Counted from the first letter of the stretch, positions 26,501 through 56,879 are shown. The stretch: 64,000 nucleotides of DNA from an uncultured Planctomycetales bacterium (GCA_937927735.1 CALBRZ010000133.1:71903-135902); one strand, 5' to 3'. Program-made: numbers and translations. The notes: a model not told the origin generated them from the letters alone.

Positions 26501-26698
26501 GATGGGCGCGGCCACGGTATTGGCCACCACCTCGGCGTTGGCCCCCGGGTAGTTGGTCGTCACGCGCACGGTGGGCGGCGTGATCTCGGGGTATTGCTCA
26601 ACCGGCAGCGACCACAACGACACGGCGCCGATCAGCACCGTGATGATCGCGATCACGTTCGCGAAGATCGGCCGATCGATGAAAAAGTTGGATATCAT
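23501..26698 (-). CDS. RND-family multidrug efflux pump, inner-membrane permease (AcrB/HAE1 type)
   Basis: 1065 aa starting MISNFFIDRPIFANVIAIITVLIGAVSL, with typical RND blocks throughout. Its start overlaps the adaptor gene stop by 4 nt. Confidence 0.9.
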   Translation of the reverse strand: MISNFFIDRPIFANVIAIITVLIGAVSLWSLPVEQYPEITPPTVRVTTNYPGANAEVVANTVAAPIEQQVNGVENMLYMSSTSSSDGSYSLTVTFDIGTDLDDAQVLVQNRVAIAEPMLPEEVRRQGVTTKKQSTNIILVISLISPDNRYDSLFLANYATLRLRDELSRVPGVGEVTVFGTGNYSMRIWLDPEKLKVRGLTTEDVMDVIREQNVQVAAGQIGQPPQDDGDLAFQYTVTTLGRLSDVEQFENIIVKSGDGVQMTRLKDIARVELGAQSYDQFNLYNGKPTANIGIYQLPGSNALDVAHQVREAMKRLSRSFPEGMEYTFPLDTTQFVEASIHEVYKTLIEAGVLVLIVILVFLQDWRAVLIPATTVPVTIIGAFAAMAALGFSVNMLTLFGLVLAIGIVVDDAIVIVENAAHHIEAGMAPKPATIKAMSEVLGPIIGITLVLMAVFMPSAFLGGITGQLYRQFALTIAATAIISAINALTLKPAQCAMWLRPPKPQKNILARGFNRVYGWFESLYTAIVRVLVRHVVFVMLIFIGLIVLTGWWYVRVPTGFLPTEDQGYVMVAVQLPDGASQQRTTEVMRKIDDMLTGMDGIDSWITIGGLSLLDNSSASNSGTLFISFSPWEERFKRGLTLERLLGEIQGKLSTIKEAIAFAFPPPSIRGLGVRGGFEMQVEDRADVGRNALFQAVQQIVQDARTQSALYQVNSTFRAGVPQLYVDIDREKVKALDIPLQAVFSTLQANLGSAYVNDFNKFGRIYQVRVQAAPEFRAQPEDIEQLEVRNRKGQMVPLGAVATVHKSFGPQTINRYNLYPSASITGEPAQGYSTGDALLLMEQIADRTLSSQMGYDWTGMAYQEKRVGGEGILVFGMAVLLVYLVLAAQYESWFTPAAVILVVPLGLLGAVAAVSFRGMDINIYTQIGIVLIIALASKNAILIVEFARDIRRRGEGILEAAVEASRLRFRPILMTSFAFILGVVPLVVAEGAGAAGQRALGTAVFGGMIASTVLAVFFVPVFFVIFQRMGEFFSKRERPQPAGEAHDEPATNGAVHGVHATTTAAH

Positions 26699-27948
26699 CG
26701 CGCGCGTGGCCCTTGCTGTTGAGAGAGTGTCTGGCTCGGGGAGGGCGCGCGTCCGGCCGCTACCGTTCCGGCCATCTCATCCGACTGAGCAACCATCGTC
26801 GTCTGTTGCGGATTGACCTCCGCCCCCGGCAACGCCCGCTGCAGGCCGTTCACCACGACCCATTCGCCAGGCTGAACGCCTTCCTCGATCACCCGCAGCG
26901 AACCCACGCGGGCCCCCAGCCGCACCGGGCGGTACTCCACCTTGTTCTCAGCGTTCACCACCAGCACAAAGTCGCCGCGCTGGTCGGCCCCCAGGGCCAC
27001 TTCACTGACCAGCAACTTGGGCGTCGGCTCGCCAATGGGAGCCCGCACTCGCACGAACAAACCGGGCACCAGTTGGCCATCGGGGTTGGGAATCCGCGCC
27101 CGCCGCATGGTAGTACCGGTGCTGGGGTCCACGCCGAATTCGCGGAAGTCGAGTGTGGCCTGGTAGGGATAGTTGTTCTGATAGCCCAGCCCCACATACA
27201 GCACCGGCGGCTTGCGATTGGGGTCGGGAAGTTGGTTATTGCGCATCATCTCCATGAACTGGAGGAGCTGGCTTTCGCTCACGCTGAAGTAGACGTGAAT
27301 GGGATCGACGCTTTCGATCACAGCCAGCACGGTCTGCTCGCGCTGCACCAGGTTGCCCACGTCGACCAGGTGCTGGCCGATCCGGCCTGACATCGGGGCA
27401 TAGATCTTGGTGTAGCTGAGATCCAGTTCGGCCCGATCCAGGGCAGCCTGGGCGGCAGCCACGTTGGCCCGGGCAGACGCCAGTTCGGCCGCCTTCACGT
27501 CGCGCTCGCTGGGCGTGATGGCGCCGCGCCGATAAGCGTCTTCGATTCGGTTCCATTCCGACTCGGCAAGTTGTAGTGCCGTCTGCATTTTCTGCAGTTC
27601 GGCTGCGGCCGAGTTGCGAGCGACTTCGTATTCGGCCGGCTCGATCTCAAACAGCAACTGCCCCTGCTTGACGTCGTCGCCGTCCTTGAAATGGATGGCC
27701 TTGAGATAACCGTTCACCCGAGCGCGGAGTTCGACCTTGGCCGCGGCCCGAGTGGTGCCGGTAAAGTCCATCCAGTTGACTACCTCTTGTTGCACCGGCT
27801 GAGCCACGGTGACTTCGGGCGGAGGCGGCGGTTGAAACTTGTTCTCGCGTTCGCAACCCGAGAGCCCCAGAAGCGCAAACGCTCCCGCCATACCGAGCAA
27901 TCCCACCCGGTAGCGTACGTTGGATGCTGCTGCACGAAACCAACTCAT
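26695..27948 (-). CDS. RND efflux periplasmic adaptor (membrane fusion protein), lipoprotein
   Basis: A lipobox LLGLSGC is present. An HlyD/AcrA-type coiled-coil hairpin (AQAALDRAELDLSYTKIYAPMSGRIG) and a beta-barrel region follow. Confidence 0.85.
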   Translation of the reverse strand: MSWFRAAASNVRYRVGLLGMAGAFALLGLSGCERENKFQPPPPPEVTVAQPVQQEVVNWMDFTGTTRAAAKVELRARVNGYLKAIHFKDGDDVKQGQLLFEIEPAEYEVARNSAAAELQKMQTALQLAESEWNRIEDAYRRGAITPSERDVKAAELASARANVAAAQAALDRAELDLSYTKIYAPMSGRIGQHLVDVGNLVQREQTVLAVIESVDPIHVYFSVSESQLLQFMEMMRNNQLPDPNRKPPVLYVGLGYQNNYPYQATLDFREFGVDPSTGTTMRRARIPNPDGQLVPGLFVRVRAPIGEPTPKLLVSEVALGADQRGDFVLVVNAENKVEYRPVRLGARVGSLRVIEEGVQPGEWVVVNGLQRALPGAEVNPQQTTMVAQSDEMAGTVAAGRAPSPSQTLSQQQGPRAR

Positions 27949-28114
27949 CGAGTTCGCTTCCTAGAGTGCCAAAATGAGAATAATGCGGTAATTAGCGTCC
28001 CAACCTCGTACCGCCTGGTGCCGATTCGATTGCCGCGTTGCCGCAATAAGGTGTGCTGCGTTGGCCGCCCAGCCCCCGGCGGCGATGCGTGGCGTTGCTG
28101 GTATTGCGGAAGGT

Positions 28115-28600
28115 TTATGTTGGTGTGTCTGGTGTGGCCGGATCGGCAGTCGACGTCCCCTCCTGAAGATTCGCTTGCACCGCGCGGAGCAACGAAATCA
28201 GCGTCTGAACCTGCTCTGGCGTTAATCCCCGGGTGGCCTTGGCCCGCACACGCTCAGTACTGGCCACGATCGTTCTCCAAACGGGCTCAGCCTGCGGGAG
28301 TGGCCGCACCATCCGTTTCCGGCGATCATCGGGGCAGCTCTCGCGGATCAGCAGGCCGTCGCGCTCCATGCGGTCCAGCACGCCGACCAGCGTGGGCGGC
28401 TCAATCTTCATACGCTGGGCCAGGTCGGTTTGTGACAGAGGACCTTCCAAAGCGAGCCAAGCCAGCACTTGCCACTGCCGGTAGGTGATACCGTGCGGCA
28501 AGAGTTCGTCATTCAAGGCGCGCTCAATCAGGTGAGCCGTCGTACAGGTCCAGTATCCAACGCTTGATTGAAAATCGTGTTTCAGCACGCGGTCCGGCAA
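28115..28600 (-). CDS. MarR-family transcriptional regulator, first gene of the marR-adaptor-pump unit
   Basis: The winged-helix block reads ITYRQWQVLAWLALEGPLSQTDLAQRMKIEPPTLVGVLDRMERDGLLIRE. The start is uncertain: TTG at 28600 or GTG at 28588. Confidence 0.8.
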   Translation of the reverse strand: MPDRVLKHDFQSSVGYWTCTTAHLIERALNDELLPHGITYRQWQVLAWLALEGPLSQTDLAQRMKIEPPTLVGVLDRMERDGLLIRESCPDDRRKRMVRPLPQAEPVWRTIVASTERVRAKATRGLTPEQVQTLISLLRAVQANLQEGTSTADPATPDTPT

Positions 28601-34584: not shown

Positions 34585-35505
34585 GTGACCCACGCGCGCC
34601 AGACTCGCAGTTTCCTTCTCAAGCGGTTTGCCGAGGCCGGCATCCGTCCGCGGACGCAGTACGGCCAGAACTTTCTGATCGACCTGAACCTGATTCGCGT
34701 GCTGCACGACGCCGCGGAGTTGGGCCCCGATGATGTCGCCCTCGAGATCGGCACCGGTACCGGCTCGCTGACCGGCATGCTCGTGCAGTCGGCGGGCACG
34801 GTGGTCACGGTCGAGATCGACGATCAGCTTTACCAGCTTGCTCGAGAGGAACTGGCCGGAGCCCAGAACCTGATCATGCTCCGGATGGATGCGCTGCGCA
34901 ACAAGAGCACGTTCCAGCCGGAACTGATCGAGATCTTGCAGCAGCAGTTGGCCGTGTCGCCGCAGCGGCGGCTGAAGCTCACGGCGAACCTGCCGTACAA
35001 CGTGGCCACGCCGATCATCTCCAACCTGCTGGCCTGCCGCGAGCTGACGCCGCACTCGATGGTGGTCACGATCCAGAAGGAACTGGCCGACCGGATCATG
35101 GCCGCGCCATCGACCAAAGACTACGGCGCGCTGAGCGTGTGGGTGCAGAGCCAGTGCCGCGTAGAAATGGTCCGTGAACTGCCACCGCAGGTGTTCTGGC
35201 CGCGGCCCAAGGTCACCAGCGCCATCATCAAGATCGTGATCGACGAGCAACTGCGCTCGCGGATCCCCGACCGCTGGTTCTTCCACCGCTTCATACGCGC
35301 GGTCTTCCTGCATCGCCGCAAGTTCCTGCGGAGCGTGGTCTGTAGCGCCTTCAAGCACGAACTGGAAAAGCACCAGGTCGACGCCGTGCTCGAGCAGCTT
35401 GGCTACGACGCTAACGCCCGGGCCGAAGCGCTCAGCATCGAAGAACTGATCGCCCTGTCGGAAGGATTCCGCGCCGTCGTCCCGGAGAACCCTAAGAAGA
35501 AATAA
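34585..35505 (+). CDS. rsmA: 16S rRNA (adenine1518/1519-N6)-dimethyltransferase
   Basis: The block YGQNFLIDLNLIRVL..LEIGTGTGSLT..ANLPYNVATPI is the KsgA signature. The start codon is GTG. Confidence 0.9.
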   Translation: MTHARQTRSFLLKRFAEAGIRPRTQYGQNFLIDLNLIRVLHDAAELGPDDVALEIGTGTGSLTGMLVQSAGTVVTVEIDDQLYQLAREELAGAQNLIMLRMDALRNKSTFQPELIEILQQQLAVSPQRRLKLTANLPYNVATPIISNLLACRELTPHSMVVTIQKELADRIMAAPSTKDYGALSVWVQSQCRVEMVRELPPQVFWPRPKVTSAIIKIVIDEQLRSRIPDRWFFHRFIRAVFLHRRKFLRSVVCSAFKHELEKHQVDAVLEQLGYDANARAEALSIEELIALSEGFRAVVPENPKKK

Positions 35506-35512
35506 CCGGCCA

Positions 35513-36334
35513 TCACGGCTGGTTGCCTCGGGCGGTGCTGCTCGGTTTGATCTCCGAAAGCGGCGAATCGTCGCGGGCAAAGAACATCACGTGCTGCCAG
35601 GGCAGCTCGTCGTACTCCCGCACCAACTTGTACCCGTTGGGCGGGATCTCTTTCATGATCTGCTTCTTACTCATCTTGTGAAGCAGCTTGATCGGCACCC
35701 GCGGGTCTTCCAGGCGGAACTCTACCAGCACGATCTGCCCGGTGGGCTTGAGCGCCTTGCGCATCGCCTTGAGCATGTGCTCGGGATGCGAAAACTCGTG
35801 GTACACATCCACCAGCAAAATCAGGTCGCAGCTTTCGTCGGGCAACTGCGGATCGATCACGCTACCCAGGATCGGCTCGATGTTCTCCACCTGGGCCGCC
35901 TTGGCGCGCTTTTCGAGCAGGCCGAGCATCTCCGGTTGAATGTCGACGGCCAGCACTTTGCCGTCCTGGCCCACCGCCTCGGCCAACTTGAGCGAATAAA
36001 AGCCGTTGCCGCAGCCCATGTCGCAGACCGTCAGGCCGGGCTTCAAATCAAGAACCTTGAGCAGCTTGGAGCAGGCTTCCTCACGCTCGCGGGTTTCGCG
36101 AATCAGCCAATCGGCGCCCAGGTAACTCATCGCCGGTGCGATCTTGCGGCCCTTGTACGCCGTGAGCGGCGGTGGAATCCGCTGGGGCCGCTGAGTTGGC
36201 TTTGCTTCCGTCGCGGCATCAGCCTGGGCTGCACCGACGTCTTGCGCTGCCGCCCAAGTTTCCGTCAACACCAGGCACATCCAAGCGCCGACGAAGGCCA
36301 TCCAGGTGCAACCGCGGCAAGGCCAGCGTTTCAT
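35513..36334 (-). CDS. Class I SAM-dependent methyltransferase with an N-terminal signal or anchor sequence
   Basis: SAM motif I is VCDMGCGNGFYSLKLAE, with LAVDIQ as a post-I acidic residue. The N-terminus WMAFVGAWMCLVLTETWAAAQ is hydrophobic. Confidence 0.8.
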   Translation of the reverse strand: MKRWPCRGCTWMAFVGAWMCLVLTETWAAAQDVGAAQADAATEAKPTQRPQRIPPPLTAYKGRKIAPAMSYLGADWLIRETREREEACSKLLKVLDLKPGLTVCDMGCGNGFYSLKLAEAVGQDGKVLAVDIQPEMLGLLEKRAKAAQVENIEPILGSVIDPQLPDESCDLILLVDVYHEFSHPEHMLKAMRKALKPTGQIVLVEFRLEDPRVPIKLLHKMSKKQIMKEIPPNGYKLVREYDELPWQHVMFFARDDSPLSEIKPSSTARGNQP

Positions 36335-36509
36335 CGGTTCTCTCCCACACCGACAGGTGCCATGGTACCGCAGACATCAAAGGCGTACCGCCCGACATCG
36401 TAACCCGTCGGCAGCGCGCGGTGCCAGCCGTGAATCGCCACAGGTTGAGCGATCGCGTCGAAGCTTGCGGACAAGAGGGCCTTGCGCGGCGCGTGCCAAC
36501 CGCTATGGG

Positions 36510-36650
36510 TTACATGCTGATAAACAGCTTGATCAGGAACAACATCGCCAGGTTGGTGACGATCAAGATGCCGATTTCCTGGTCTTCCATTTCCTGGAGT
36601 TGCGAGAGCTTGTACGTGAAGTACGCCAGCAGCCCGAGGATGATTCCCAT
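36510..36650 (-). CDS. 46-aa two-helix membrane peptide, below the ORF-track length cutoff
   Basis: I translated this by hand as MGIILGLLAYFTYKLSQLQEMEDQEIGILIVTNLAMLFLIKLFISM followed by a stop. By my count 38 of 43 informative codons end in G or C, in line with the bias I saw in neighbouring genes. Confidence 0.45.
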   Translation of the reverse strand: MGIILGLLAYFTYKLSQLQEMEDQEIGILIVTNLAMLFLIKLFISM

Positions 36651-36923
36651 CGATCAACCGGCCCACCTGGTCGATTCGCCCAACAATGCATAGCCCCCCC
36701 ATCATCCCGCAGCCTGAAGGGCAGTCAGGATGACCACATTGATGGCTTCCCGCCAGATGCCGTTCAATCCGAAGTCGGTGTTCGGCAGGTTATAGACAAG
36801 CCACAGTCCGCCGACTGCCCCCCCAGTGCCAACAGACACACGCCCCAGAGCACGAGGAATTCGAGCGTAATTCTGCCCCACGCGTTTAAACGCGATCCAA
36901 GACCGGCGTCTGAGGCGCAGGTA

Positions 36924-36950
36924 CGCGGGGCGGCGCGAGGCCGCCCCGCG
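36924..36950 (-). terminator. Hairpin directly after the amidohydrolase stop
   Basis: A perfect 11-bp GC stem (cgcggggcggc / gccgccccgcg) with loop gcgag lies 17 nt beyond the stop at 36967. There is no clear U-tract. Confidence 0.45.
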
Positions 36951-36966
36951 TGCGCGGTTTACTAAG

Positions 36967-38643
36967 CTACTGCTTTGGTTTACGCAGCGCCTTGCCGGCC
37001 AACACGTCGGTCGGCTTGCCGGCGTCGATTGCAAGTTGTCCATTCACCAACACGTACTCCACGCCCTCGGAATGCAGGAACGGTTCCTGGTAGGTGGCGT
37101 GGTCAATCAGCGTGTCGGGATTGATCACCGCAATATCGGCGGCCAGACCTTCCTTGATGTAACCGCGATCCTTCATGCCCAGGATGTCGGCCGGCAGACC
37201 GCTGCAACTGCGAATGGCCTGTTCCAGCGGCATCACCTTTTCGCGGATCACGTAGCGGCCGAGCTTGCGGGGGAACGTGCCGTAGCTGCGCGGGTGGGGC
37301 TTGCTGCCGTCCTTCACCTTGAGCGAACCATCGCTGGCGGTGACCACCCAGGGAAGCTGCATCACAAAACGGACATCCTCCTCGTTCATGGCGAAGCTCA
37401 CGGCCGAAGCCCCGCCATTGCTTAGGATTTCTTCGCCAATGTCGGCCGGCGAGCGTCCCTCTTTTTCGGCGATCGCGGTGATCATCTGGCCCGACCACTC
37501 CGGCTTAGGGCGATACGACGCGATTTGAATGGCCACCCGTTCGGTCAATCGCTTTTCAATTTCGCGGCGCAGCTTGGGCTGCAAGTTCGGGTCCTTGAAC
37601 CGCTTGGCCAGATCCGCGTTGGTGCCTTCGCGCAGTTCGCTGGGCAGCAGCATCGCGGCCAGCGACGTGCTCGAAGCGGTGTACGGGTACTGGTCGGCGG
37701 TGACCACCTGGCCCGCTTCGCGAGCTTGCTCGATCAATCGCGCCGCCACGCGCACGTTGCCCCAGGCGGCCCGGCCCGAGGCCTTGAAGTGCGAAACGTG
37801 CACCGGCAGGTTGGCTTCCTTGCCGATCTGAATGGCCTCGGTCACAGCATCAATCAACGTGGTACCTTCGCCGCGAATGTGGCTGGCATAGATACCACCG
37901 TGTTTGCTGACCACCTTGGCCAGGGAGACGATCTCCTTGGTGTCGGCGTAGGCGCCCGGCACGTAGATCAGACCGGTGCTCATGCCCCAGGCGCCGGCCT
38001 GCATGCCTTGCTCGACCAGGTCGAGCATCTTCTTGAGTTCGTCGTCGCTGGGCGGGCGATTCACGTTGCCCATCGCCCGGCTGCGGACCGCGCCGGCCGG
38101 GATCAGGTGGACGACGTTCACGCCCACGCCTTGTTCGTCCAGTTGCTTGAGATAGCGGGCTACGTCGACCTGCCCGCCGCCGCAATTGCCGGTGACCAGC
38201 GTGGTGCAGCCTTGCGTGAGGTAATTGCGGCCATTGCGTGTGGCCTTGCCCAACACCGACGAATCGCTGTGGTTGTGCAGGTCGATAAAGCCCGGCACGA
38301 TCAGCAGGCCCGTGCAGTCAATCGTGCGATCGGCCTTCACGTCGCCAAGCTGGCCGACCTGAGCGATACGTTCGCCCTCGACGAGCACGTCGAGCTTTTC
38401 GCCCGGCTTACCGGAACCATCGATCACGGTGCCGCCGCGCAGCAGAATGCGAGCCGGCTTGGCAGCGTCCGCCTGAGCGGCCTTCGCCTCACTCGAAGAT
38501 TGTGCCTTGGTAGATTTTACCGAGGAGTCGGGATCGGCCAGGGCCGAGGCTGCCGTGCCTAGCAGCATCGCCGCCACGGCGACAGCCTTCCAACAGGGAG
38601 AAACCAGAGAACCAAGCGTCGCTTGCCAAGTACGGTTGCGCAT
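36967..38643 (-). CDS. Exported amidohydrolase of the N-acyl-D-amino-acid deacylase (D-aminoacylase) family
   Basis: Internal ATG at 38643 (MRNRTWQATLGSLVSPCWKAVAVAAMLLGTAASALA, a signal peptide). The family N-terminal block reads LLRGGTVIDGSGKPGEKLDVLVEGERIAQVG..GLLIVPGFIDLHNHSD. Confidence 0.8.
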   Translation of the reverse strand: MRNRTWQATLGSLVSPCWKAVAVAAMLLGTAASALADPDSSVKSTKAQSSSEAKAAQADAAKPARILLRGGTVIDGSGKPGEKLDVLVEGERIAQVGQLGDVKADRTIDCTGLLIVPGFIDLHNHSDSSVLGKATRNGRNYLTQGCTTLVTGNCGGGQVDVARYLKQLDEQGVGVNVVHLIPAGAVRSRAMGNVNRPPSDDELKKMLDLVEQGMQAGAWGMSTGLIYVPGAYADTKEIVSLAKVVSKHGGIYASHIRGEGTTLIDAVTEAIQIGKEANLPVHVSHFKASGRAAWGNVRVAARLIEQAREAGQVVTADQYPYTASSTSLAAMLLPSELREGTNADLAKRFKDPNLQPKLRREIEKRLTERVAIQIASYRPKPEWSGQMITAIAEKEGRSPADIGEEILSNGGASAVSFAMNEEDVRFVMQLPWVVTASDGSLKVKDGSKPHPRSYGTFPRKLGRYVIREKVMPLEQAIRSCSGLPADILGMKDRGYIKEGLAADIAVINPDTLIDHATYQEPFLHSEGVEYVLVNGQLAIDAGKPTDVLAGKALRKPKQ

Positions 38644-38891
38644 TGCAGCCTCGAAGCAGATTGGTACAGAGATTGCGCATGGGGGGTGCCCAACGGGCGC
38701 CCCTATCATAGGGTCGCCCAAAGCGCTCCGCAAACATCGCGATTCGCGCAAAGTACCAACCGCCCTGAACCGCTGAACACGGCAGTCCGACAGAACGAAC
38801 GCGGCCGCGCATTACCGAGAGCCGCGCAGAAGGAGGCGAGGCAGATGAAGTTTGCCCAGACTCGGGCTACCCGACGGGACAGGCAAACGCC

Positions 38892-40574
38892 TTACTTGGG
38901 CGTGCGGGTCAATTGCTCAAGCACGCGAGGGTCGAGCGTCATCGAGTCGGCGTCGGCAATCAGCCCCTCGCTGTGATGCAATACCCGGAGATAGTCATAC
39001 AAACTGGGCAGAGTTTCGCAGAGCAGACGCTGCCGCTGCTTGATCTCGGCGAATACGCCTTCGGCCGCGGCAACCGATGATGGCTTGTGCAGCAGGGCCG
39101 GCAGGGGTTGTTCGGGCACGTGCCCCACCCCCGCGTAGATGCAGTAGTAACTGCCGTTGGTCCAGAAGTTCCGGAACTCGGCGTCGAAGCTGCCGTAGTA
39201 TGTGTTTTCGTCGGTGAACGGCTGGTTGATCGGCAAGCCTGAGCGGTACGTTTCCAGCTTCTCGCGCAGGTTGTCGGTCATGTACAGGTCTTTGTTGGCC
39301 TTCCAGAACGGCGTATCCACGCGCGGCGACACTCGGAAATGCGACTGGATGAAATCGCGTGTGTCGTCGAACATCGCTTCCACTTCGCGGTTGAAGCGGT
39401 CGCGCAACACCGGGTTAAAGGTCTTGTCCGGGAAGTGCTTGGCCAACTGATAGACCGCGGCATAGATGAAGTAGATTCCGGTCGATTCCAGCGGCTCGAG
39501 GAACAGCGACGAGAGCCCGATGCCCACACAGTTGTTCACCCAGCTTCGGCGGTTTCGCCCCACGCGGAACCGAATGCGGTTGAGCTGCGTCTTGTCCGGG
39601 TCGAGCCCCCACAGCCGGCAGAAATCCTGCACGGCTTTGTCTTCGCTACAGAACTGGCTGGAATACACGTAGCCGGAACCGAAGCGGCCCAGCATGGGGA
39701 TCTTCCAGGTCCAGCCCGACTCCATGGCGATCGCCGACGTGTACGGCTCGATGCCGTAGCGCTGGTCGTCGTGGGGTACCGACGCCGCGACGGCGCTGTC
39801 GCACAGCAGGTGGTCGTTCATGTCGAGGAACGGCTCGTTGAGCGCCTTGTTCATCAACAGCGAGCGGAAGCCCGAGCAGTCGATGAACAAATCGCCCGCC
39901 AGCCGGCGGCCGCTCTTGGTCGCCAGGGCCGCGATGTAGCCGCGATTGTCGAACTCGACGTGGCTCAGTTCGTCCTGCACGTGGATGACGCCGAGCTTCC
40001 GGGTGCCGTGGCGGCGAAGGAAATCGGCCACGAGGTGCGCATCGAAGTGCCAGGCATACCGGGTAGCTGCCCGGCCGTCGAACCACCGCGGCGAGCGCTT
40101 GGCATCCATGAACGGCGGCTCGGTAAAGCAGGCGTAATCGAACGCCTCGTTGGTTTGCTGGCGATACCGCCGCAAGAACCAGTAGTGCGACAGTGGCACC
40201 TGGTCGACGCTCGGCAGAATGCCAAAGGGGTGATAAAAGTGGTCGGGGCTGCAACCAATCGAGCGGGGCGACCGGACACCTGGTCCAGGCGTCCGCCAGT
40301 TCACAAACCGTACCGCCGTCTTGAAACTGGCGTTGCACTCCCGCATCCACTCATGTTCGGGGATGCCCAGGTAGTCGAAAAAGACCTTCTGCAGGTTGGG
40401 AACCGTGGCCTCGCCCACGCCGATCTTGCTGATCGTGGGGGTCTCCATCAGCACCACGCGGGCTGTTCCTTGCAGGAACTTGGCCAGGTAACAGGCCGAC
40501 ATCCAGCCAGCCGTGCCGCCACCCAGAATGACAACCGTCTCGATTTGATTGGCACGCGAGGAAGGAGGGGCCAT
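38892..40574 (-). CDS. Flavin-dependent tryptophan halogenase (PrnA/RebH-like)
   Basis: Internal ATG at 40574. The FAD site is [58 protein letters not shown] is near-collinear with the PrnA sequence as I recall it. GWTWKIPM lies at 39693..39716, and [12 protein letters not shown] is also present. Confidence 0.85.
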
Positions 40575-40847
40575 CAACCGTTGCTCCGCTTGGATGATAA
40601 GAGGGATGCCCGGCAGACCGGACGCCGCCGCGCGTTGCCCCCCGGGGGCGGCCTGGGAGAACAATCGGGCCCAATTGTAGCACGCCACCCACTAGATGGG
40701 CTGCAACCGACCAAGAAAACTGGGAACGACGGGCGAAATCGAAGTTCTGGTCAGTTTGCGACAATTAGGAGAGATTTATCGGTGGTGCGTTCGACGCGCC
40801 CACCGCTGGGCGGTGCGCTTTTGGGAGGCCCTGCTATTATAGGACAT

Positions 40848-40888
40848 CCCCGCTGGCGTGCCCCGGTTGCGCGGATTTCGCCAGCGGG
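40848..40888 (-). terminator. Hairpin after the second halogenase gene
   Basis: A 10-bp stem (cccgctggcg / cgccagcggg) with a 21-nt loop begins 35 nt beyond the stop at 40923. On the minus strand a perfect TATAAT follows (plus-strand 40836..40841). There is no U-tract. Confidence 0.35.
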
Positions 40889-40922
40889 AAATCCCTCTCT
40901 CGCGATCCAAGCGTAAGACGGC

Positions 40923-42179
40923 TCAGGTTGTTTCAGCTTTTGCCTCGGCGTCCATTTCAGCCCGCATCTCGTCCATGTAGGGCCAGAGGACGTCCAGTTC
41001 CTCGCGGAACAAGTCGCCAATCAGCAGGTCGGTGAGGAAGCCCTTGAAGTGCGGATGGCGGTGCACAAACCGGCCGAAGCTGAAGCCGGTGTAATACTCG
41101 CACACCAGACGCCGCATGCGGTTGACGCCGCGCACGTAGTCTTCTTCCCAACTGCGCAGACGCTGCTCGCTGACGTCGCCGGCGGCGAGGGCCTCGGCGA
41201 TGGCATCGGCCGCTAGGGCACCCGACTTCAGCGCCAACAGCACGCCGGACGAGTACAACGGGTCGAGGAAGCCAAACGCGTCGCCCACGAGCACCCAGCC
41301 GTTACCGGCCACCTGGCTGGAACGGTACGAGTATTCCTTCTGCACGCGGAAGATGTCGCACCGTTCGGCGTTGGCGATCAGTGGCTGCAAGCCAGGGCAG
41401 CGGTCCACTTGCCGCTGATAGGCCTTGTCCAGCGGTTCGCCGGGACCGTTGGGGAAGATCTCGCTGTAGTCGGACACAACGCCCACGCTGGTGATGTTGT
41501 CGTGCAGCGGGATATACCAGAACCAGCCCTTCTTGCCCTGGGTCCGCAGCACCAGCGTGGCGCCTTCGTCGCGGCCTTCGCCGCGATAGGCACCGCGCCA
41601 GTACGTCCACAGCGCCATTTTCTTCAGGTCGGGGTCCCAGGTCCGCAGGCCGAGGCGGTCGGTCAAGAGCGTGCTTTGGCCTGAGGCATCGACCACGACC
41701 GAAGCCCGCACTTCGCGTTTGCCTTCTTCGGGGTGCTGGATCCGCACGCCCACCGCGCGGTTATCCTCGAAGATCACTTCGATCACGCGGGTGCCTTCGT
41801 GCACGTCGACGCCATGCTCGCGGGCGTTATCGAGCATGATCTGGTCGAACTCGCTGCGGCGGACTTGCCAGGTTTGCGACTCCTCGCCGGGACGGTGTTC
41901 CACAAAGTAAAACGGCTCGGACAGCTTGCCGCGTTCGTTCACGAACTGCACGCTGTACTTCTTGACGAAGTGGCTCCCCTTGAGCTTGGGAAGCATGTTC
42001 AGCCGCTTCAGCACGTCGTAGGTCTTGGGAATCAGCGACTCGCCGATGTGGAACCGCGGGAAGCGGTCGCGTTCAAACAACGTCACCTTGTAGCCGTGTT
42101 GGGCCAGCAGGGTGGAAACCGTACTTCCCGAAGGTCCGCCACCAATGACCACCACGTCGGTCTGAGAAGGAACAGCCAT
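40923..42179 (-). CDS. Second flavin-dependent halogenase-family protein (short, phenol/pyrrole variant-B-like)
   Basis: The FAD site is VVVIGGGPSGS. GWFWYIPL (a WxWxIP motif) lies at 41505..41528. GDAFGFLDPLYSSGV matches the FxxPxxSxG motif. 418 aa. Confidence 0.7.
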   Translation of the reverse strand: MAVPSQTDVVVIGGGPSGSTVSTLLAQHGYKVTLFERDRFPRFHIGESLIPKTYDVLKRLNMLPKLKGSHFVKKYSVQFVNERGKLSEPFYFVEHRPGEESQTWQVRRSEFDQIMLDNAREHGVDVHEGTRVIEVIFEDNRAVGVRIQHPEEGKREVRASVVVDASGQSTLLTDRLGLRTWDPDLKKMALWTYWRGAYRGEGRDEGATLVLRTQGKKGWFWYIPLHDNITSVGVVSDYSEIFPNGPGEPLDKAYQRQVDRCPGLQPLIANAERCDIFRVQKEYSYRSSQVAGNGWVLVGDAFGFLDPLYSSGVLLALKSGALAADAIAEALAAGDVSEQRLRSWEEDYVRGVNRMRRLVCEYYTGFSFGRFVHRHPHFKGFLTDLLIGDLFREELDVLWPYMDEMRAEMDAEAKAETT

Positions 42180-42376
42180 CGCAACCTGCCACGGATGAGG
42201 AGTCGAGTCAGCGTGTTATCAGTTCGCTAAAGGGTTGCGCCGGAGAGTGTCTGCCGCAATGCCATCCGCCGGGTCGTTACCCATCACGCTTCCGCCATTT
42301 GCCTCAGGCGGTAGGCCAGGGAGAGGGGGCGTCTTTCAAGGTCCCTGTAGCGCAGACACTTAGGCGCGTACGGCGC

Positions 42377-42410
42377 ATGATAGCCGTCGAAACATTAGTT
42401 GTCTAGACAA
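42377..42410 (-). promoter_or_regulatory. Sigma-70-type promoter candidate overlapped by a perfect 12-bp palindrome
   Basis: The minus strand reads TAGACA, 17 nt, TATCAT (plus-strand 42400..42405 and 42377..42382). The palindrome TTGTCTAGACAA (42399..42410) covers the -35 element. This is a locally AT-rich island about 200 nt upstream of the halogenase ATG at 42179. Confidence 0.35.
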
Positions 42411-42456
42411 TCATTTATCGGCCGATCCAACCGTTGAACCGGCCTCGCCGGGGGCA

Positions 42457-44508
42457 CTACGCCGATGGTTCGCTGGCGGCCAAGCGCTCTACGTAGTCCC
42501 ACATCTGGCGGATTTCGCGGCGATACCCACCCGAGAGGATCGGGAACCGGCACCAGGTCTTTGGGTCAAGGTTTTCGTCGTCCAGATGGAACGAGGGCGC
42601 GTACCGCTCGCGTTTCCACTGGTTGCGGCACCACAGCCGGAAAAACCGCTCGACCCATTCGGCCAACTGCCGCAGGCTGTGCTTGGGGTAGATCGGCCGC
42701 AGCATCCGGAGCACGTCCAGCGGAACCAACTTGTCGCGGATCGCCAGCCGCTCGATGGCGTCCAGCACATCGTAGGGCATCAGATCCTGCTCGTCGGTCT
42801 GGCCGGCTTCTTGGGGACGCAGCTCAGCCGTGGGAGCCTGGCGGTTGACGGCGGCCAGTTTGGGATACGGCCGCCCGCCGTACGGACCGGTCGTTTCCAG
42901 CCACCGCAGCCACTTGCGCAGAAAGTTCTTGTCGATGCCGGCGATCGGGCAAAGCCCGCCCGAGGTGTCACCGTCCATCGTGGCGTAGCCCACCGCCGCC
43001 TCCGAGCGGTTGCTGGTGGAAAGCAGCAAAGCCCCGCGGAGATTGGCCAACATCCAAACGCTGGGCGAACGGGTACGCGCCTGGATATTCTGCAAGGCGA
43101 TGTCGTCGGTTTCCCAGTTCAACTGCCGGCCGATGGCCTCGGCGATGATCCGCTGGTAGTCCTGCACGACCGAATCGACATCGAAGATCAAGAACTCTGC
43201 CCCCACTTCCTCGGCCGCCAGACGCGCGGCGTCGAGCGTGGTTTGTGAGCTGTTGCGCGTCGGCTGGTAAGCGCAGCTCAGCAGTTGCCGTGTGATGCTT
43301 CGGGCATCGGTCGCGTTCTGGAGTTGTGGGATGTGGGCCAGCTTGGCGCGCAAGCCATCGAGTCCCAGTTCCGCCAACGCGCCTTCGACCATCAAGCCCA
43401 CCAGTGCGGCGCACGCGGCCGAGTCGGCTCCGCCTGAGAGCGAAACCACAAAACCTTTGGAATAGCTCTTGCGCAGGTAGTCGAACAGCGCCAGCCGCAC
43501 CGCCCGGGCAAACTCTTCCTCCTTGACGTGCAGCCCTTCTTCCCAGGGCTGCAAACGAGCCACCGAAGGCTCTGGATCCACATCCGGGTAGGTGAACGGC
43601 ACCTCGACGCACGCCGCTTCGGCCCCGGCCAGGTCGGGCATGTAGCTGGCCAGCCGTTCCTGCTGCATTCGCGTGAGGTCGACATCGATCACCGCCGAGG
43701 TCAGCAGCGTATCGGCGAACGAGAACCGCGGGCCATTGGCGACCAGGCGGCCACCGGTGGCGATCATGGCATCGCCATCGTAGATGGCTCGGCCGGCTTC
43801 GTTGCCCAGCAAGTTGCTGTAGATGTACGTGAGCGCGAACGCCCGAGAACCTTCGAGCACGAAGCGGTGGCGAACCTCGGTCTTGCCGAAGGCAAAATGG
43901 CTGGCCGAGGGATTGAGGATGATATCCACGCCCCGGGCCGACAGTTCGCTGCCGGGCCGCCGGGCCACCCAGGCATCCTCACAGATTTCAAAACCGATCC
44001 GCACCCCGCCGCAATTGAAGTGCACATCGCCGATCGGGTAACTCTGCCCATCGCGAGTCAGCAAGGCCCGATGGTCGCGCGGCCAGGGCTTGAACCAGCG
44101 GGGCTCGTAATGGATGCCGTCGCCGGCCAGGAATCGTTTGGCGACAAAACCAGCGATTTTGCCATCGACCAATAGCGCCGCGGCGTTGAACAGCGCGTTG
44201 TGATACACCAGCGGCAGGCCGACTGAGACGATCATGCCCTGGGTTTCAGGCACGATCTCGCACAGCACCTCCCAGGCCATCTGCTGGACGCCCGGCGAAA
44301 AGAAGGCGTCCTCGCAGCCGTAACCGGTGATGCACAGCTCGGGCAGGCAGAGAATGGACACCCGCTGGCTGCGAGCCTGCTGGATCGCCTGGCGGATATG
44401 CGCAAGGTTGCCGTCCCAGTCCAGCGGCGTCTGGTTCAACACAGCGGCCGCCACTTTGATCAATTGCACGCGTTGCTCCTCACTTCCGGCTGCCGGGCCC
44501 TGGCGCAT
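42457..44508 (-). CDS. nadE: Glutamine-dependent NAD+ synthetase (long form: nitrilase-type domain plus synthetase domain)
   Basis: The N-terminal CN-hydrolase block is SILCLPELCITGYGCEDAFF, and the ATP-PPase motif is VVSLSGGADSA. The start is uncertain; I chose the ATG at 44508, while the track ORF begins at 44583. Confidence 0.85.
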   Translation of the reverse strand: MRQGPAAGSEEQRVQLIKVAAAVLNQTPLDWDGNLAHIRQAIQQARSQRVSILCLPELCITGYGCEDAFFSPGVQQMAWEVLCEIVPETQGMIVSVGLPLVYHNALFNAAALLVDGKIAGFVAKRFLAGDGIHYEPRWFKPWPRDHRALLTRDGQSYPIGDVHFNCGGVRIGFEICEDAWVARRPGSELSARGVDIILNPSASHFAFGKTEVRHRFVLEGSRAFALTYIYSNLLGNEAGRAIYDGDAMIATGGRLVANGPRFSFADTLLTSAVIDVDLTRMQQERLASYMPDLAGAEAACVEVPFTYPDVDPEPSVARLQPWEEGLHVKEEEFARAVRLALFDYLRKSYSKGFVVSLSGGADSAACAALVGLMVEGALAELGLDGLRAKLAHIPQLQNATDARSITRQLLSCAYQPTRNSSQTTLDAARLAAEEVGAEFLIFDVDSVVQDYQRIIAEAIGRQLNWETDDIALQNIQARTRSPSVWMLANLRGALLLSTSNRSEAAVGYATMDGDTSGGLCPIAGIDKNFLRKWLRWLETTGPYGGRPYPKLAAVNRQAPTAELRPQEAGQTDEQDLMPYDVLDAIERLAIRDKLVPLDVLRMLRPIYPKHSLRQLAEWVERFFRLWCRNQWKRERYAPSFHLDDENLDPKTWCRFPILSGGYRREIRQMWDYVERLAASEPSA

Positions 44509-44857
44509 CGAACCGTCTGCCACGACAAGTATATATTGTCGGTCATTCGCCCGTGGAAGGCGATACGCTGCCGCTGCTGCCATCGCCAGCAGCCCGGCAA
44601 CCGGGGGGCCGCCGCTCCCGCTCGCGCGATGCTATCAGGGGCCTATTTGAGGCGTCTGCCGTCAAGAAGAACCGATGTTGCATAAAAAGTCTGATCGGTC
44701 CATGATAGGCCCCCCGCGACACCATCTTGGTGAGTTCGTCAGGCCGACCGCACCGCGCTGCCCAGGCGCTGGGGGCGGGCGCCTCACACCACGCAACGGA
44801 AACAGGCGCTGACTCCCGCGCGCCTGAAGCAAGACCCAAATGCACGGAGGCCTGGGA

Positions 44858-45541
44858 ATGCTGAAGATCTGGTTTGGCAGGCTGTGGACCCTGGGGTTGA
44901 TTTTGTGCCTGGCCGGATGCGGCGGCCAATCCGAGCCCACGGCCGATAACAGCGAAGATACCGGGTCTGTACAATTGCCGGTTACGCCAACGTCGGCCCC
45001 CAACCCGGCTCCGCCCAAGAAAAATCTGTATCCCGAGGTCGTGGTCGAAACCTCGCACGGCTCGTTTGTGCTGCGGCTCGACTCCGAGAAGGCCCCGCTG
45101 ACCGTCGACAACTTCCTCACCTACGTCGATAGCGGCCACTACAACGGCACCATCCTCCACCAGGTTCGGGCCGGCGATATCATCCTGGGCGGCGGTTACA
45201 CCGAGGACTTCACCGAAAAGCCCACCCGGTCGCCCGTGCGGAACGAAGCCGACAACGGTTTGCAGAACGTGCGGGGTACGATCGCCCTGGCCCGGCAACC
45301 GGACGCGATCGACAGTTCCACCTGCCAGTTCTTCATCAACCTGGCCGACAATTCGCACCTGGATCACCACGGCCGTACGCCCGAGGAATACGGCTACTGC
45401 GTGTTCGGTAAGGTGATCGACGGCATGGAGGTGCTCGACCTCATCTCGCAAGTACCGGTCGAAGACAAGATCATCGATGGCGAAACCTTTGTGATGGCGC
45501 CCAAGGAACCGATCGTGATCAAGTCGATGCACCGCCGGTAG
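44858..45541 (+). CDS. Cyclophilin-type peptidyl-prolyl isomerase, lipoprotein
   Basis: GGAGG lies 7 nt upstream of the ATG at 44858. A lipobox LCLAGC is present. The cyclophilin blocks are VVVETSHGSFVLRLDSEKAPLTVDNFLTYV and GTIALAR...DSSTCQFFINL. Confidence 0.85.
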   Translation: MLKIWFGRLWTLGLILCLAGCGGQSEPTADNSEDTGSVQLPVTPTSAPNPAPPKKNLYPEVVVETSHGSFVLRLDSEKAPLTVDNFLTYVDSGHYNGTILHQVRAGDIILGGGYTEDFTEKPTRSPVRNEADNGLQNVRGTIALARQPDAIDSSTCQFFINLADNSHLDHHGRTPEEYGYCVFGKVIDGMEVLDLISQVPVEDKIIDGETFVMAPKEPIVIKSMHRR

Positions 45542-54476: not shown

Positions 54477-56879
54477 CTACCGTAATCCTTGCAACAGCGT
54501 GGTGGAACCGGCGGGGAACCATTGTCCATCGGCCCCGTGCCGCACCAGGTCATGGGGTGCCAATTGGCCCGAGCGGTAAATGTTGATCAAGTCCTCGGCG
54601 GTCAGCGGTCCGAACTCGGTACCCATGATGCGGCAATACCATTCGCCGTCATCTTCGGCACCACCGGACTCCGTTTGCGCGGTTTCCGCCTGGGTCACAG
54701 CTCCGATCGGATCAACCACCACCGCCTTGCTATAGCCACCGCGTGTTTCCGGCCCCACGGGGCTCGCCCGGCGTGCGTGCGGCGCACCTTGGCCGATGTG
54801 CGGCGGCAGCGGGGGCGGCAACGGCGGCGGCATCTCCGGAACCGCGGGCGGCTCTTCCGTGTGCGGTTCGGCACTGCTCTTGGCAGCCGGCTCGCCGGGC
54901 CTTGCCGTCAGCGTTACCGGCGCCGGCCTATGTGACCTGGCCGGCTCCTCGGTGAACCGCTCACTGGAAATCCGCTGCACGTCGCCGCGGCTCTGCCAAC
55001 CGGCGTACAGGAACTCCAGGTCGAGCAGGGCCTTCTCAACCAGCGAATCGATGAACGAAGGCAGATAACCCGTCGGCTTGAGGTTCTTGCCGTCGCGGAA
55101 GTTGAAAATGTCGGCCAGGATCACATCGTGCGTTTCGGGATCGACGCCCACCACCTCGGCAATCTGCGTGACGGCGCGGCGTCCGCCCGGCAAACGATTG
55201 ATCTGCACGATCAAGTCAATCGCCGACGCGATCTGACGGTGGATCGAAAGCACCGGCAAGTCGGCGGCCATCAGCACCAAGACCTCCATGCGCTCGATCA
55301 CTTCCTCAGCGCTGTTGGCGTGGATCGTGGTCAGGCTGCCATCGTGGCCGGTGTTCATGGCCTGGAGCATGTCCAGCGCTTCGCCGCCGCGGCACTCGCC
55401 AACGATGATGCGGTCGGGCCGCATACGCAGGGCATTGCGCACCAGGTCGCGGATCGTGTACTGCCCGGTGCCTTCCACATTCGGCGGCTTGGCTTCCAGG
55501 CTGACCACGTGCTCCTGGTGCAGCCGCAATTCCTGCGTGTCTTCGATCGTGACAATGCGTTCCTTGTACGGAATGAAGCTGCTCAGCACGTTCAGCAGCG
55601 TGGTCTTACCGGTGCCGGTTCCACCGCTGATCAGGATGTTGCGGCGATCGATGACCGCGGCCCGGAGGAATCGGGCGGCCGGCTCACTGATGCTGCCCAG
55701 TTCGAGCAGATCATCCATCGTCATCCGCTGAACGGGGAACTTGCGGATGGTGAGGCACGGTCCGCGCGTGGCCAGCGGCGGAATGATGGCGTTCACGCGT
55801 GAGCCGTCAGGCAACCGGGCGTCGACCAGCGGCGTGCTCTTGTCGATCCGCCGCCCCACCTGGGCAACGATGCGTTCGATGATGCTTTCGGTAACTTTCT
55901 CGGAAATGAACCGCCGCCCGGAGCGTTCGATCACACCGCCGCGTTCGACATAGATCTGGTCGCTCTTAACGACCATGATTTCGGAGATCGTCGGCGCGCG
56001 TAGCAGGTCTTGGAGCGGGCCAAAGCCAAAGACGGTGTCCTTGAGGTCTTTCTTCAGCGTGCGGAGCAGGATGTACTTGCGCAGTTCGGCATGCAGGTGA
56101 ATCCGCACCGCCGCGGCCACTTCGACAAACCGCTCCTCAAGGAAGTAGATCTTGTCGCTGACGTCGGAAATCTCGTCCAGCCGCAGCTTCTCGCGAATGT
56201 ACTGCAGCAGGTTGTGCAGTTCGGTTTCGCGCTCTGGCACCAGCGTTGCCGGCACATCGAACTCGTTGGCGGTGATGCTGGCCAGGTCGAAGTAATCGTC
56301 GTGCCCCGTCTCCATAATGATCTGGTTTACCAGCAGATCGCGGAGCGTGAGCACCGCCAGCTCATCCAGCAGCGATTCGTTGTGCTGGCCGAAAACTTCC
56401 AGTTCGCGACAAACGTCCTCGATGTTGTTCTCAAGCAGCAGGATGTTGTCGCGATTGTGGACGCGGTTGTTCTCCAGCTCGTACAGGTCGAGCCGTTCCA
56501 GCAGCTTCTGGTGGATGCGCAGCTCCAGCGACGCCATGACGGCGCGCAGGTGGGCTTCCACCTCCTGCGGCGTGACCGTGGCCGCGACCTCGGATTCAAA
56601 GGTCAGCGTGTAGGGCCAGATGCGGAGCTTTACGCCGGGCGAAAACGACGCTTCCTCGCCGCCCAACAGTTCGCGGTCGCCCACCAGGCAGCTGTTCAGG
56701 CCGACATTCTGAACGGACAACTGGCCGTCGCGCAAGCGAATGATCGCATGCCGCCGCGAGACGAGCGGACTGCGAAGGACGATATCGTTCTCGTTGTCGC
56801 GACCGATGGTGACTTCGGTCGCTTCGGTCTCGAACAGCGTCCGCCGACTCTCGTTGACCTTGTTGTACCAGATCTTCAC
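54477..56879 (-). CDS. FHA-domain / CpaF(TadA)-type secretion ATPase / C-terminal GYF_2-like fusion protein
   Basis: GTG start. FHA text: VTIGRDNENDIVLRSPLVSRRHAIIRLRDGQLSVQNVG. Walker A: ISGGTGTGKTTLLN. His-box: MNTGHDGSLTTIHANS. Linker: PPPLPPPLPP. C-terminus: EWYCRIMGTEFGPLTAEDLINIYRSGQLAPHDLVRHGADGQWFPAGS. Confidence 0.85.
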   Translation of the reverse strand: MKIWYNKVNESRRTLFETEATEVTIGRDNENDIVLRSPLVSRRHAIIRLRDGQLSVQNVGLNSCLVGDRELLGGEEASFSPGVKLRIWPYTLTFESEVAATVTPQEVEAHLRAVMASLELRIHQKLLERLDLYELENNRVHNRDNILLLENNIEDVCRELEVFGQHNESLLDELAVLTLRDLLVNQIIMETGHDDYFDLASITANEFDVPATLVPERETELHNLLQYIREKLRLDEISDVSDKIYFLEERFVEVAAAVRIHLHAELRKYILLRTLKKDLKDTVFGFGPLQDLLRAPTISEIMVVKSDQIYVERGGVIERSGRRFISEKVTESIIERIVAQVGRRIDKSTPLVDARLPDGSRVNAIIPPLATRGPCLTIRKFPVQRMTMDDLLELGSISEPAARFLRAAVIDRRNILISGGTGTGKTTLLNVLSSFIPYKERIVTIEDTQELRLHQEHVVSLEAKPPNVEGTGQYTIRDLVRNALRMRPDRIIVGECRGGEALDMLQAMNTGHDGSLTTIHANSAEEVIERMEVLVLMAADLPVLSIHRQIASAIDLIVQINRLPGGRRAVTQIAEVVGVDPETHDVILADIFNFRDGKNLKPTGYLPSFIDSLVEKALLDLEFLYAGWQSRGDVQRISSERFTEEPARSHRPAPVTLTARPGEPAAKSSAEPHTEEPPAVPEMPPPLPPPLPPHIGQGAPHARRASPVGPETRGGYSKAVVVDPIGAVTQAETAQTESGGAEDDGEWYCRIMGTEFGPLTAEDLINIYRSGQLAPHDLVRHGADGQWFPAGSTTLLQGLR

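Follow-up and report, generated by a model that had tools for sequence, protein, structure and literature searches.

The 64,000-nt stretch of DNA analysed here (GCA_937927735.1 CALBRZ010000133.1:71903-135902, referred to below as the window), from an uncultured Planctomycetales bacterium, carries two genes for different flavin-dependent halogenases (FDHs) one after the other, and the question raised by this locus is whether the two enzymes form a small pathway or are neighbours by accident. An earlier reading made without database searches (the sequence-only reading) had placed them outside any recognisable biosynthetic cluster, either as a minimal route to a halogenated tryptophan- or indole-derived metabolite or as a pair of orphan enzymes. 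The analysis described below favours, with a probability of about 0.62, two independent transcription units that are adjacent by happenstance in one Pirellulales lineage, the tandem arrangement being probably an incidental, lineage-specific juxtaposition of ordinary enzymes. The two genes are as follows.

38892..40574, minus strand: ORF1, 560 amino acids (aa), flavin-dependent L-tryptophan halogenase, predicted 6-halogenase of the BorH/Thal type

40923..42179, minus strand: ORF2, 418 aa, phenol/pyrrole-class FDH of a Planctomycetota-wide family

Both open reading frames (ORFs) were found as described earlier, with a spacer of 348 nt between them and all of the quoted motifs in place. They match the Pfam family PF04820 (Trp_halogenase), ORF1 from end to end (E 2.6e-157) and ORF2 with E 4.2e-30. 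The mechanical ORF for ORF1 extends to 40688, and the conserved start is the ATG at 40574, with GGAG 10 nt upstream. The GC content at third codon positions (GC3) is 0.83 for ORF1 and 0.82 for ORF2, which is coding-type and on par with neighbouring genes; as GC and GC3 of both match the surrounding genome, there is no sign of recent transfer, and this origin was rejected. Thirteen independent metagenome contigs encode an identical ORF2 protein and show the gene order of the window, and the closest named genome is that of an uncultured Pirellulales (L011, a metagenome-assembled genome), with 85–90% amino acid identity over the region. Of the 43 ORFs of the window that were taken as likely genes, 41 were scanned against Pfam, the remaining two being short. 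In agreement with the sequence-only reading, these scans revealed no non-ribosomal peptide synthetase (NRPS), polyketide synthase (PKS), carrier protein, PF01613 flavin reductase or prnBCD-like gene.

ORF1 had been taken for a free-tryptophan halogenase, and this identification held. A search of the PDB sequences gave BorH (6ul2) with E 3.5e-259, followed by Thal (about 1e-258), RebH (about 1e-247) and PrnA (about 1e-211), and global alignment with BorH (P0109) gave 67% identity over 529 positions. The flavin-binding GxGxxG motif is present as GGGTAGW at residues 18–24, aligned with BorH 12–18, and the WxWxIP motif, which blocks monooxygenase chemistry, occurs in the BorH alignment as GWTWKIP at 287–293. 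The catalytic glutamate is E363, the second Glu of FLEPLESTG, which lies in a segment identical to BorH 352–363 and corresponds to BorH E357; the glutamate of this EPLES segment is E357 in BorH and RebH, E358 in Thal and E346 in PrnA, and its role is known for PrnA and RebH. The catalytic lysine, which is Lys79 in BorH, RebH and PrnA, had been sought in the wrong part of the protein. It is K85 in CNASFK, the NASFK of which aligns with BorH N75–K79, and in BorH the catalytic Lys79 is about 3 Å from the chlorine of bound 6-chlorotryptophan, the product of that enzyme (PMC11840605). Both catalytic residues are present in ORF1, as are the residues of the tryptophan site (H115, F117, Y459, Y460, E466 and F470), with conservation of HFYHPFG, of YYG..E..F and of the substrate-lid segment with respect to BorH. 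About 26 additional residues are found at the C-terminus of ORF1 in comparison with BorH, Thal and RebH.

The position of halogenation was predicted from residues known to set selectivity. Thal is switched from a 6- to a 7-halogenase by V52I, V82I, S360T, G469S and S470N (Moritzer 2019, as tabulated in PMC7644825). ORF1 has V58, V88, T365, G474 and S475 at these positions, four of the five being of the Thal type and all five identical to those of BorH, an established 6-halogenase, and 6-halogenation of free L-tryptophan is therefore predicted.

ORF2 had been described as a shorter halogenase-family protein resembling phenol- or pyrrole-type enzymes, and the PDB sequence matches, the fold and the motifs agree with this. 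The motifs are GGGPSG (13–18), HIGES (44–48), GWFWYIP (218–224) and FGFLDPLYSSG (302–312), the last including the FxxPxxSxG motif as FLDPLYSSG (304–312). K74 aligns with CndH K76 in the phmmer alignment and its catalytic role is assigned by position. The best PDB sequence match is 8zop (2e-72), annotated as FasV with FAD, FasV being the late-stage chlorinase of fasamycin; CndH, CmlS, Mpy16, PltA, ChlB4 and Bmp2 follow. An AlphaFold model of ORF2 built from 48 homologues had a mean predicted local distance difference test (pLDDT) score of 89.3, and when it was compared with the PDB by Foldseek, FasV was ranked first with a template modelling (TM) score of 0.85. The sequence and the modelled fold indicate that ORF2 is a phenol/pyrrole-class halogenase, which groups with FasV, Bmp2, PltA, CndH and CmlS and not with geranylgeranyl reductases. 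No PP-binding, NRPS or PKS gene was found in the window or among the conserved neighbours of ORF2-family genes, which argues against a carrier-dependent subclass and not against the class.

Homologues of ORF2 number thousands, and the top 120 are 67–73% identical to it, except for one at 91%. A scan of one genome per species gave 435 relatives, the best 80 of which, used for all family-locus counts below, are almost all from Planctomycetota (Gemmataceae, Pirellulales, Isosphaera and Planctomycetaceae) at 63–72% identity. As judged from these sequences, conservation of the family across planctomycete orders is unusually high. The literature searched (8ZOP, planctomycete halogenases) contained no description or characterised member of this family.

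Two alternatives concern the nature of the enzymes. The match of ORF2 to the Trp_halogenase family might be misleading and the protein a flavin-dependent reductase or monooxygenase similar to geranylgeranyl reductase, UbiH or QhpG, given that it matches many FAD-oxidoreductase models (QhpG with 160.9 bits, the geranylgeranyl reductase model TIGR02032 with 138.3 bits, FAD_binding_3), that its relatives are named in databases only as ‘flavin-dependent dehydrogenase’ or ‘NAD(P)/FAD-dependent oxidoreductase’, and that no characterised member came up in the literature searched. However, the NCBIfam scores for FAD oxidoreductases are all under their curated cutoffs (158.8 for TIGR02032, those of QhpG, UbiH and others being missed by far), and the best NCBIfam match is the CmlS model (234.6 bits), with no curated family capturing ORF2. 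Over two sets of 48 and 121 family sequences, K74, WxWxIP, FxxPxxSxG, HIGES, GWFWYIP and GDAFGFLDPLYSSG show either no variation or conservation of at least 98%, and the first three do not vary in the set of 121; GGGPSG is likewise invariant in the family. The first 14 Foldseek ranks are all halogenases (FasV, Bmp2, PltA, Mpy16, ChlB4, CndH, RadH and CmlS, TM 0.78–0.89), and the geranylgeranyl reductase structure 3oz2 appears only at rank 48 (TM 0.64). The grouping with such reductases that the sequence-only reading had allowed for was not observed, and this alternative is very unlikely. It is still harder to credit that ORF1 acts on peptide-bound tryptophan or another indole. No downstream tryptophan-utilising enzyme is seen in the window and PF04820 also includes halogenases that act on indoles or peptides (BrvH 6frl, VirX1 6qgm and the MibH-type 5uao), but these are distant matches, with E of 1e-58 to 1e-73 against 1e-247 to 1e-259 for BorH, Thal and RebH, and both the substrate lid and the residues contacting tryptophan are conserved.

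Whether the two halogenases belong together was judged from the gene order in related genomes, including the genes that flank the pair.

36967..38643, minus strand: D-aminoacylase / N-acyl-D-amino-acid deacylase-family amidohydrolase, 558 aa from an internal Met, PF07969 and PF01979

42457..44469, minus strand: glutamine-dependent NAD+ synthetase (nadE), housekeeping; CN_hydrolase and NAD_synthase, TIGR00552 at 92.6 bits (above cutoff), gene call in L001

The upstream gene is nadE, as had been recognised earlier. For the downstream gene, the proposed deacylase family is borne out by the PDB matches to D-aminoacylase (1rjp, E 9e-78) and N-acyl-D-glutamate deacylase (3gip), and the proposed signal peptide is a resemblance of the N-terminus judged by eye only. 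All four relatives with an identity of at least 88% (L010, L011, L091 and L092) have the ORF2–ORF1 pair. The full order halogenase-halogenase-deacylase occurs only in L011 and L091, the two of them that extend far enough; in L010 and L092 the order upstream of the pair is also the same, and their DNA ends at or just past ORF1. Beyond these relatives the synteny largely fails. Among the 80 ORF2-family loci, 79 have no tryptophan halogenase, deacylase or nadE nearby, the exception being the close relative L011. On the side of ORF1, no ORF2-like gene was found within 6 kb in 78 of 80 metagenome loci of its relatives, the two exceptions being 90–92% identical, and none of the 84 tryptophan-halogenase loci with DNA at 82% identity or less has an ORF2 relative (up to 6–10 kb covered). 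Stand-alone tryptophan halogenases, mostly with housekeeping neighbours, were found at 81–82% (L007, L093, L094), 74% (L171) and 69–70% identity (L009, L172, L173). The amidohydrolase adjoins ORF1 in close relatives only and is regarded here as a neighbour.

In the Pirellulales-type contigs L007, L009, L172, L173 and L093–L099 the BorH/Thal-like gene stands single among genes such as those for Der GTPase, alanine dehydrogenase, NadA and succinate dehydrogenase, and no flavin reductase or biosynthetic gene lies within 10 kb of it. GATase/Peptidase_C26 genes were noted near two of the stand-alone genes (L009:11782-12528 and L173:13641-14231), and the latter locus also holds a Chorismate_bind gene that is anthranilate-synthase-like (L173:20193-21668). 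They may point to a loose connection with tryptophan biosynthesis or be coincidental.

The hairpin and the TATAAT box that had been noticed between the two genes are both present, and their conservation bears on whether the genes are transcribed separately.

40842..40895, minus strand: hairpin just 3’ of ORF2, core arms CCCGCTGGCG (40888-40879) and CGCCAGCGGG (40858-40849)

40835..40847, minus strand: invariant 13-nt block ATGTCCTATAATA, containing TATAAT at 40836-40841, candidate -10 box of ORF1

42375..42419, minus strand: ORF2 promoter/operator block, palindrome TTGTCTAGACAA at 42399-42410 and TAGACA-17-TATCAT at 42405-42377

The hairpin folds with -37.8 kcal/mol (z -4.23 against shuffled sequences), and its arms are kept in the relatives, with a compensatory T-A to C-G change in L091. 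It is likely to terminate the ORF2 transcript or, as an inverted repeat covering the -35 region of ORF1, to have a regulatory role. The block ATGTCCTATAATA does not differ between the window, L010, L011 and L091, where the surrounding spacer averages 51% column identity; a second conserved -10-like sequence, TACAAT, is located at 40674-40679, and the GGAG-ATG start context of ORF1 is conserved as well. Conserved arms, an invariant block and a conserved start context in an otherwise diverged spacer are consistent with an ORF2 transcript that ends behind the gene and with a promoter of ORF1's own. The -10 box and the hairpin were found by phylogenetic footprinting, and the scan for sigma-70 and terminator consensus caught the promoter-like site of ORF2 only; the hairpin went unflagged because it has no U-tract. 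An Rfam scan of 35000-45000 with E up to 1 gave two chance-level matches, none of them in the spacer. Upstream of ORF2, the 45-nt block is nearly invariant in four relatives, with two variable positions, and the other intergenic DNA has diverged. Within it the perfect 12-bp palindrome TTGTCTAGACAA, which is unique in the window, overlaps the -35 element of TAGACA-17-TATCAT, the sole sigma-70-like site of the region in the promoter scan. It is thus probable, as the sequence-only reading had suggested, that ORF1 and ORF2 each have their own promoter.

The palindrome connects ORF2 to an arrangement that recurs in its family. Of the 70 ORF2-family loci with enough upstream DNA, 45 have a MarR-family gene of ~160 aa immediately before the halogenase gene and in the same orientation, and a gene of the Na_H_Exchanger family lies directly downstream in 23 of 68. 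The operator of this module was defined as TTGTCTnGACAA upstream of the FDH gene or of the MarR-FDH pair, and a perfect copy is found at 42399-42410. When up to two mismatches are allowed, 48 copies of the palindrome fall in the 71 kb that precede ORF2-family genes, as against 4 in the other 1.09 Mb of those loci, an enrichment of about 170-fold; its extended consensus of ~22 bp, noted in the window and in loci L012–L090, is gATAaTTGTCTgGACAACTATcG. It is positioned 22–61 nt before the MarR start codon or, when there is no MarR gene, 60–262 nt before the FDH start. It is absent upstream of ORF1 and from 771 kb of tryptophan-halogenase loci, except for the two close relatives that carry ORF2. 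We infer from this distribution that the palindrome is the MarR operator of an autoregulated MarR-halogenase unit, of which ORF2 would be the local orthologue, and that the lineage of the window appears to have retained the operator with the MarR gene no longer adjacent. In the window nadE takes the place held by the MarR gene in most family members and ORF1 lies downstream; tblastn gave no match in the window to the MarR or the exchanger of the module, and a flavin reductase is also missing from it. The exchangers next to ORF2-family genes are homologous to those found directly downstream of distant tryptophan halogenases in 12 loci (38% identity, E 1e-68, representatives L043:9291-10736 and L141:2533-3870). 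The FDH-exchanger arrangement recalls rebU, which adjoins rebH; exchangers beside halogenases may reflect halide or ion supply, and their recurrent pairing supports a real role of the ORF2 family in halogenation. Gene order and operator together would define a hitherto undescribed MarR-halogenase(-Na+/H+ exchanger) module across Planctomycetota.

The window does contain one MarR-family gene (28115-28600), which was considered as the regulator of ORF2 and rejected: it had no tblastn match to the module MarR at 1e-3, and no copy of the operator is nearby. It is part of an efflux unit on the minus strand (23501-28600), with an AcrB-type resistance-nodulation-division pump (1065 aa) and a HlyD-type adaptor.

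Independent transcription units in chance adjacency have to be weighed against readings in which the two halogenases cooperate. In the simplest of these, which the sequence-only reading had proposed, the two enzymes, possibly with the deacylase and a methyltransferase encoded beyond it, are a minimal pathway in which ORF1 makes 6-halotryptophan and ORF2 halogenates it, or an indole derived from it, a second time. The adjacency on one strand in four of four relatives at 88% identity or more suits such a pathway, as does the cluster-free route of stand-alone enzymes that has been proposed for a halogenated planctomycete metabolite (10.1101/723874). It is also supported by a Joint Genome Institute (JGI) contig that carries P0003, a tryptophan halogenase 76% identical to ORF1, with a homologue of ORF2 before it and different flanks; the order there is a gene of 151 aa, the ORF2 homologue P0168 (425 aa), an ORF of 51 aa, P0003 and a TonB-like gene. 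A second occurrence of two specific genes side by side would be rare by chance, and P0168 is not a sister copy of ORF2: at rank 72 of 120 by distance, it is not closely related to the copy in the window. Against this, the pair is missing from 79 of the 80 ORF2-family loci and from all 84 tryptophan-halogenase loci at 82% identity or less, neither the deacylase nor the methyltransferase accompanies the P0003 pair, ORF2 has its own operator and promoter and a hairpin and a conserved -10 box precede ORF1, and the closest characterised relatives of ORF2 use phenolic polyketides or carrier-bound pyrroles and tyrosyl groups, not tryptophan. With the halogenase-halogenase-deacylase order confined to the window, L011 and L091, a minimal pathway to a halogenated tryptophan or indole appears doubtful; the orphan alternative of the sequence-only reading fits ORF2 well, and the adjacency on the P0003 contig leaves some coupling of the halogenases conceivable.

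That same contig weighs against accidental adjacency. In the neighbour-joining tree of tryptophan halogenases P0003 branches outside the P0002 lineage, which lacks the pair, and in the star-like tree of the ORF2 family P0168 is placed away from ORF2, so that the adjacency was either ancestral and then lost or arose twice; it could be a repeated, selected juxtaposition. To the same side belong the common strand of ORF1 and ORF2, the lack of a U-tract in the hairpin, which makes read-through possible, the lack of a flavin reductase in the window, and the lack of a module-type MarR gene there by tblastn, on account of which the regulator is hypothetical at this locus. A broader form of cooperation can also be envisaged, in which the MarR-operated FDH, often with a RebU-like exchanger, is a phylum-wide inducible system outside clusters, acting for example on environmental or algal phenolics, and a stand-alone tryptophan 6-halogenase was recruited directly downstream of it in at least two lineages, both enzymes then cooperating, for example through a shared halide or flavin supply or sequential halogenation, towards a free halotryptophan or indole antimetabolite or signal. 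This appears unlikely, and independent units with incidental adjacency remain the preferred reading.

Under that preferred reading, and with the catalytic steps taken from homology, ORF1 would act as a two-component enzyme supplied with free FADH2 by an unlinked flavin reductase. FADH2, O2 and chloride or bromide would give hypohalous acid, which would be guided to K85 and E363 for electrophilic substitution at C6 of L-tryptophan held by the six site residues named above; the product would be free 6-chloro- or 6-bromo-tryptophan. Expression of ORF1 would start from its own -10 box, past the hairpin that ends the ORF2 transcript. ORF2 would apply the same flavin and lysine chemistry to an electron-rich aromatic substrate, probably a phenol, and would be induced upon release of MarR from the palindromic operator over its promoter, the cognate MarR being presumably encoded elsewhere in the lineage. 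The window scans showed no enzyme nearby that would consume tryptophan or halotryptophan, and the recurrence of cluster-free tryptophan halogenases in Pirellulales suggests that the final product is halotryptophan as such or a compound derived from it by unlinked enzymes.

Among known systems, ORF1 is nearest to BorH, Thal (ThdH) and RebH, the two-component tryptophan 6- and 7-halogenases of actinomycete bisindole and thienodolin pathways, with which it shares the GxGxxG motif, the lysine, the glutamate, WxWxIP and the tryptophan lid; by its sequence it is an addition to this group in an unusual phylum, its host being a Pirellulales planctomycete. In contrast to the BorH and RebH loci, it has no adjacent flavin reductase (RebF/BorF), RebU-like Na+/H+ exchanger or downstream pathway genes, and neither a flavin reductase nor tryptophan-processing genes (prnBCD, rebODCP and similar) were found adjacent to it within the 64 kb. 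Among its more distant relatives, Flavin_Reduct occurs in 18 loci and the Na+/H+ exchanger in the 12 mentioned above, together with adenylation-peptidyl carrier protein (A-PCP) and P450 genes. ORF2 shares with FasV (8zop), CndH, CmlS, PltA, Mpy16 and Bmp2 the fold (35% identity to FasV), the lysine, WxWxIP and FxxPxxSxG, and with FasV and Bmp2 also the short length of about 410–450 aa; unlike them it has no polyketide or NRPS cluster or carrier protein, and its family is tied to a MarR gene and operator instead of a biosynthetic gene cluster.

Two further systems are likened to the locus by description only. The pyrrolnitrin (prn) operon pairs the tryptophan halogenase PrnA with the pyrrole-type halogenase PrnC, and thus also unites both FDH types at one locus; the window differs in having neither prnB nor prnD and in that the pairing of ORF1 and ORF2 is not conserved. 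In the BaaA/BaaB locus of planctomycete strain 10988, assigned to 3,5-dibromo-p-anisic acid, BaaB was proposed to be a stand-alone FDH outside a multimodular cluster and lies beside a chorismate lyase (10.1101/723874). BaaB and ORF2 are alike in being planctomycete FDHs outside such clusters, and differ in that no chorismate lyase is found in the window or among the conserved neighbours of the ORF2 family.

Two lines are worth following from here. ORF1 and its stand-alone Pirellulales relatives are BorH/Thal-type tryptophan halogenases in planctomycetes with no biosynthetic cluster around them, so that free halotryptophan may be their product, and ORF1 is a candidate biocatalyst from a new phylum. 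The MarR-operator-halogenase module is the more interesting by-product: its regulator, operator and inducer offer a testable handle on the purpose of halogenation in Planctomycetota.

The remainder of the window consists by Pfam of housekeeping and envelope genes, namely those for SecDF, YajC, the cytochrome bc complex, RtcB, RibF, RibE, KsgA, Psd/Pss, a tricorn protease, acetyl-CoA synthetase and secretion ATPases, and the AcrB/HlyD/MarR efflux unit described above. The methyltransferase considered above (35513-36334, minus strand) lies downstream of the amidohydrolase on the same strand; it is a class I S-adenosylmethionine-dependent enzyme, UbiE/COQ5-like, with an N-terminal extension of ~85 aa. 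Its position is conserved in close relatives only, and nothing in the locus comparisons points to a joint function with the halogenases. The small ORFs that separate the methyltransferase gene from that of the amidohydrolase were considered as a precursor of a ribosomally synthesized and post-translationally modified peptide or another small gene, and were rejected as two fragments of a predicted small membrane protein of 119 aa, split into ORFs of 59 and 46 aa in different frames (36702-36881 and 36510-36650, minus strand). The gene is intact in L091 (from about 9400) and L011 (about 12180) and is split also in the identical contigs L001–L004, which suggests a frameshift or a decaying gene. 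Lastly, a type II/IV secretion ATPase (54477-56879, minus strand) has an unusual combination of an N-terminal FHA and a C-terminal GYF_2 domain and is followed by a T2SS-F gene.

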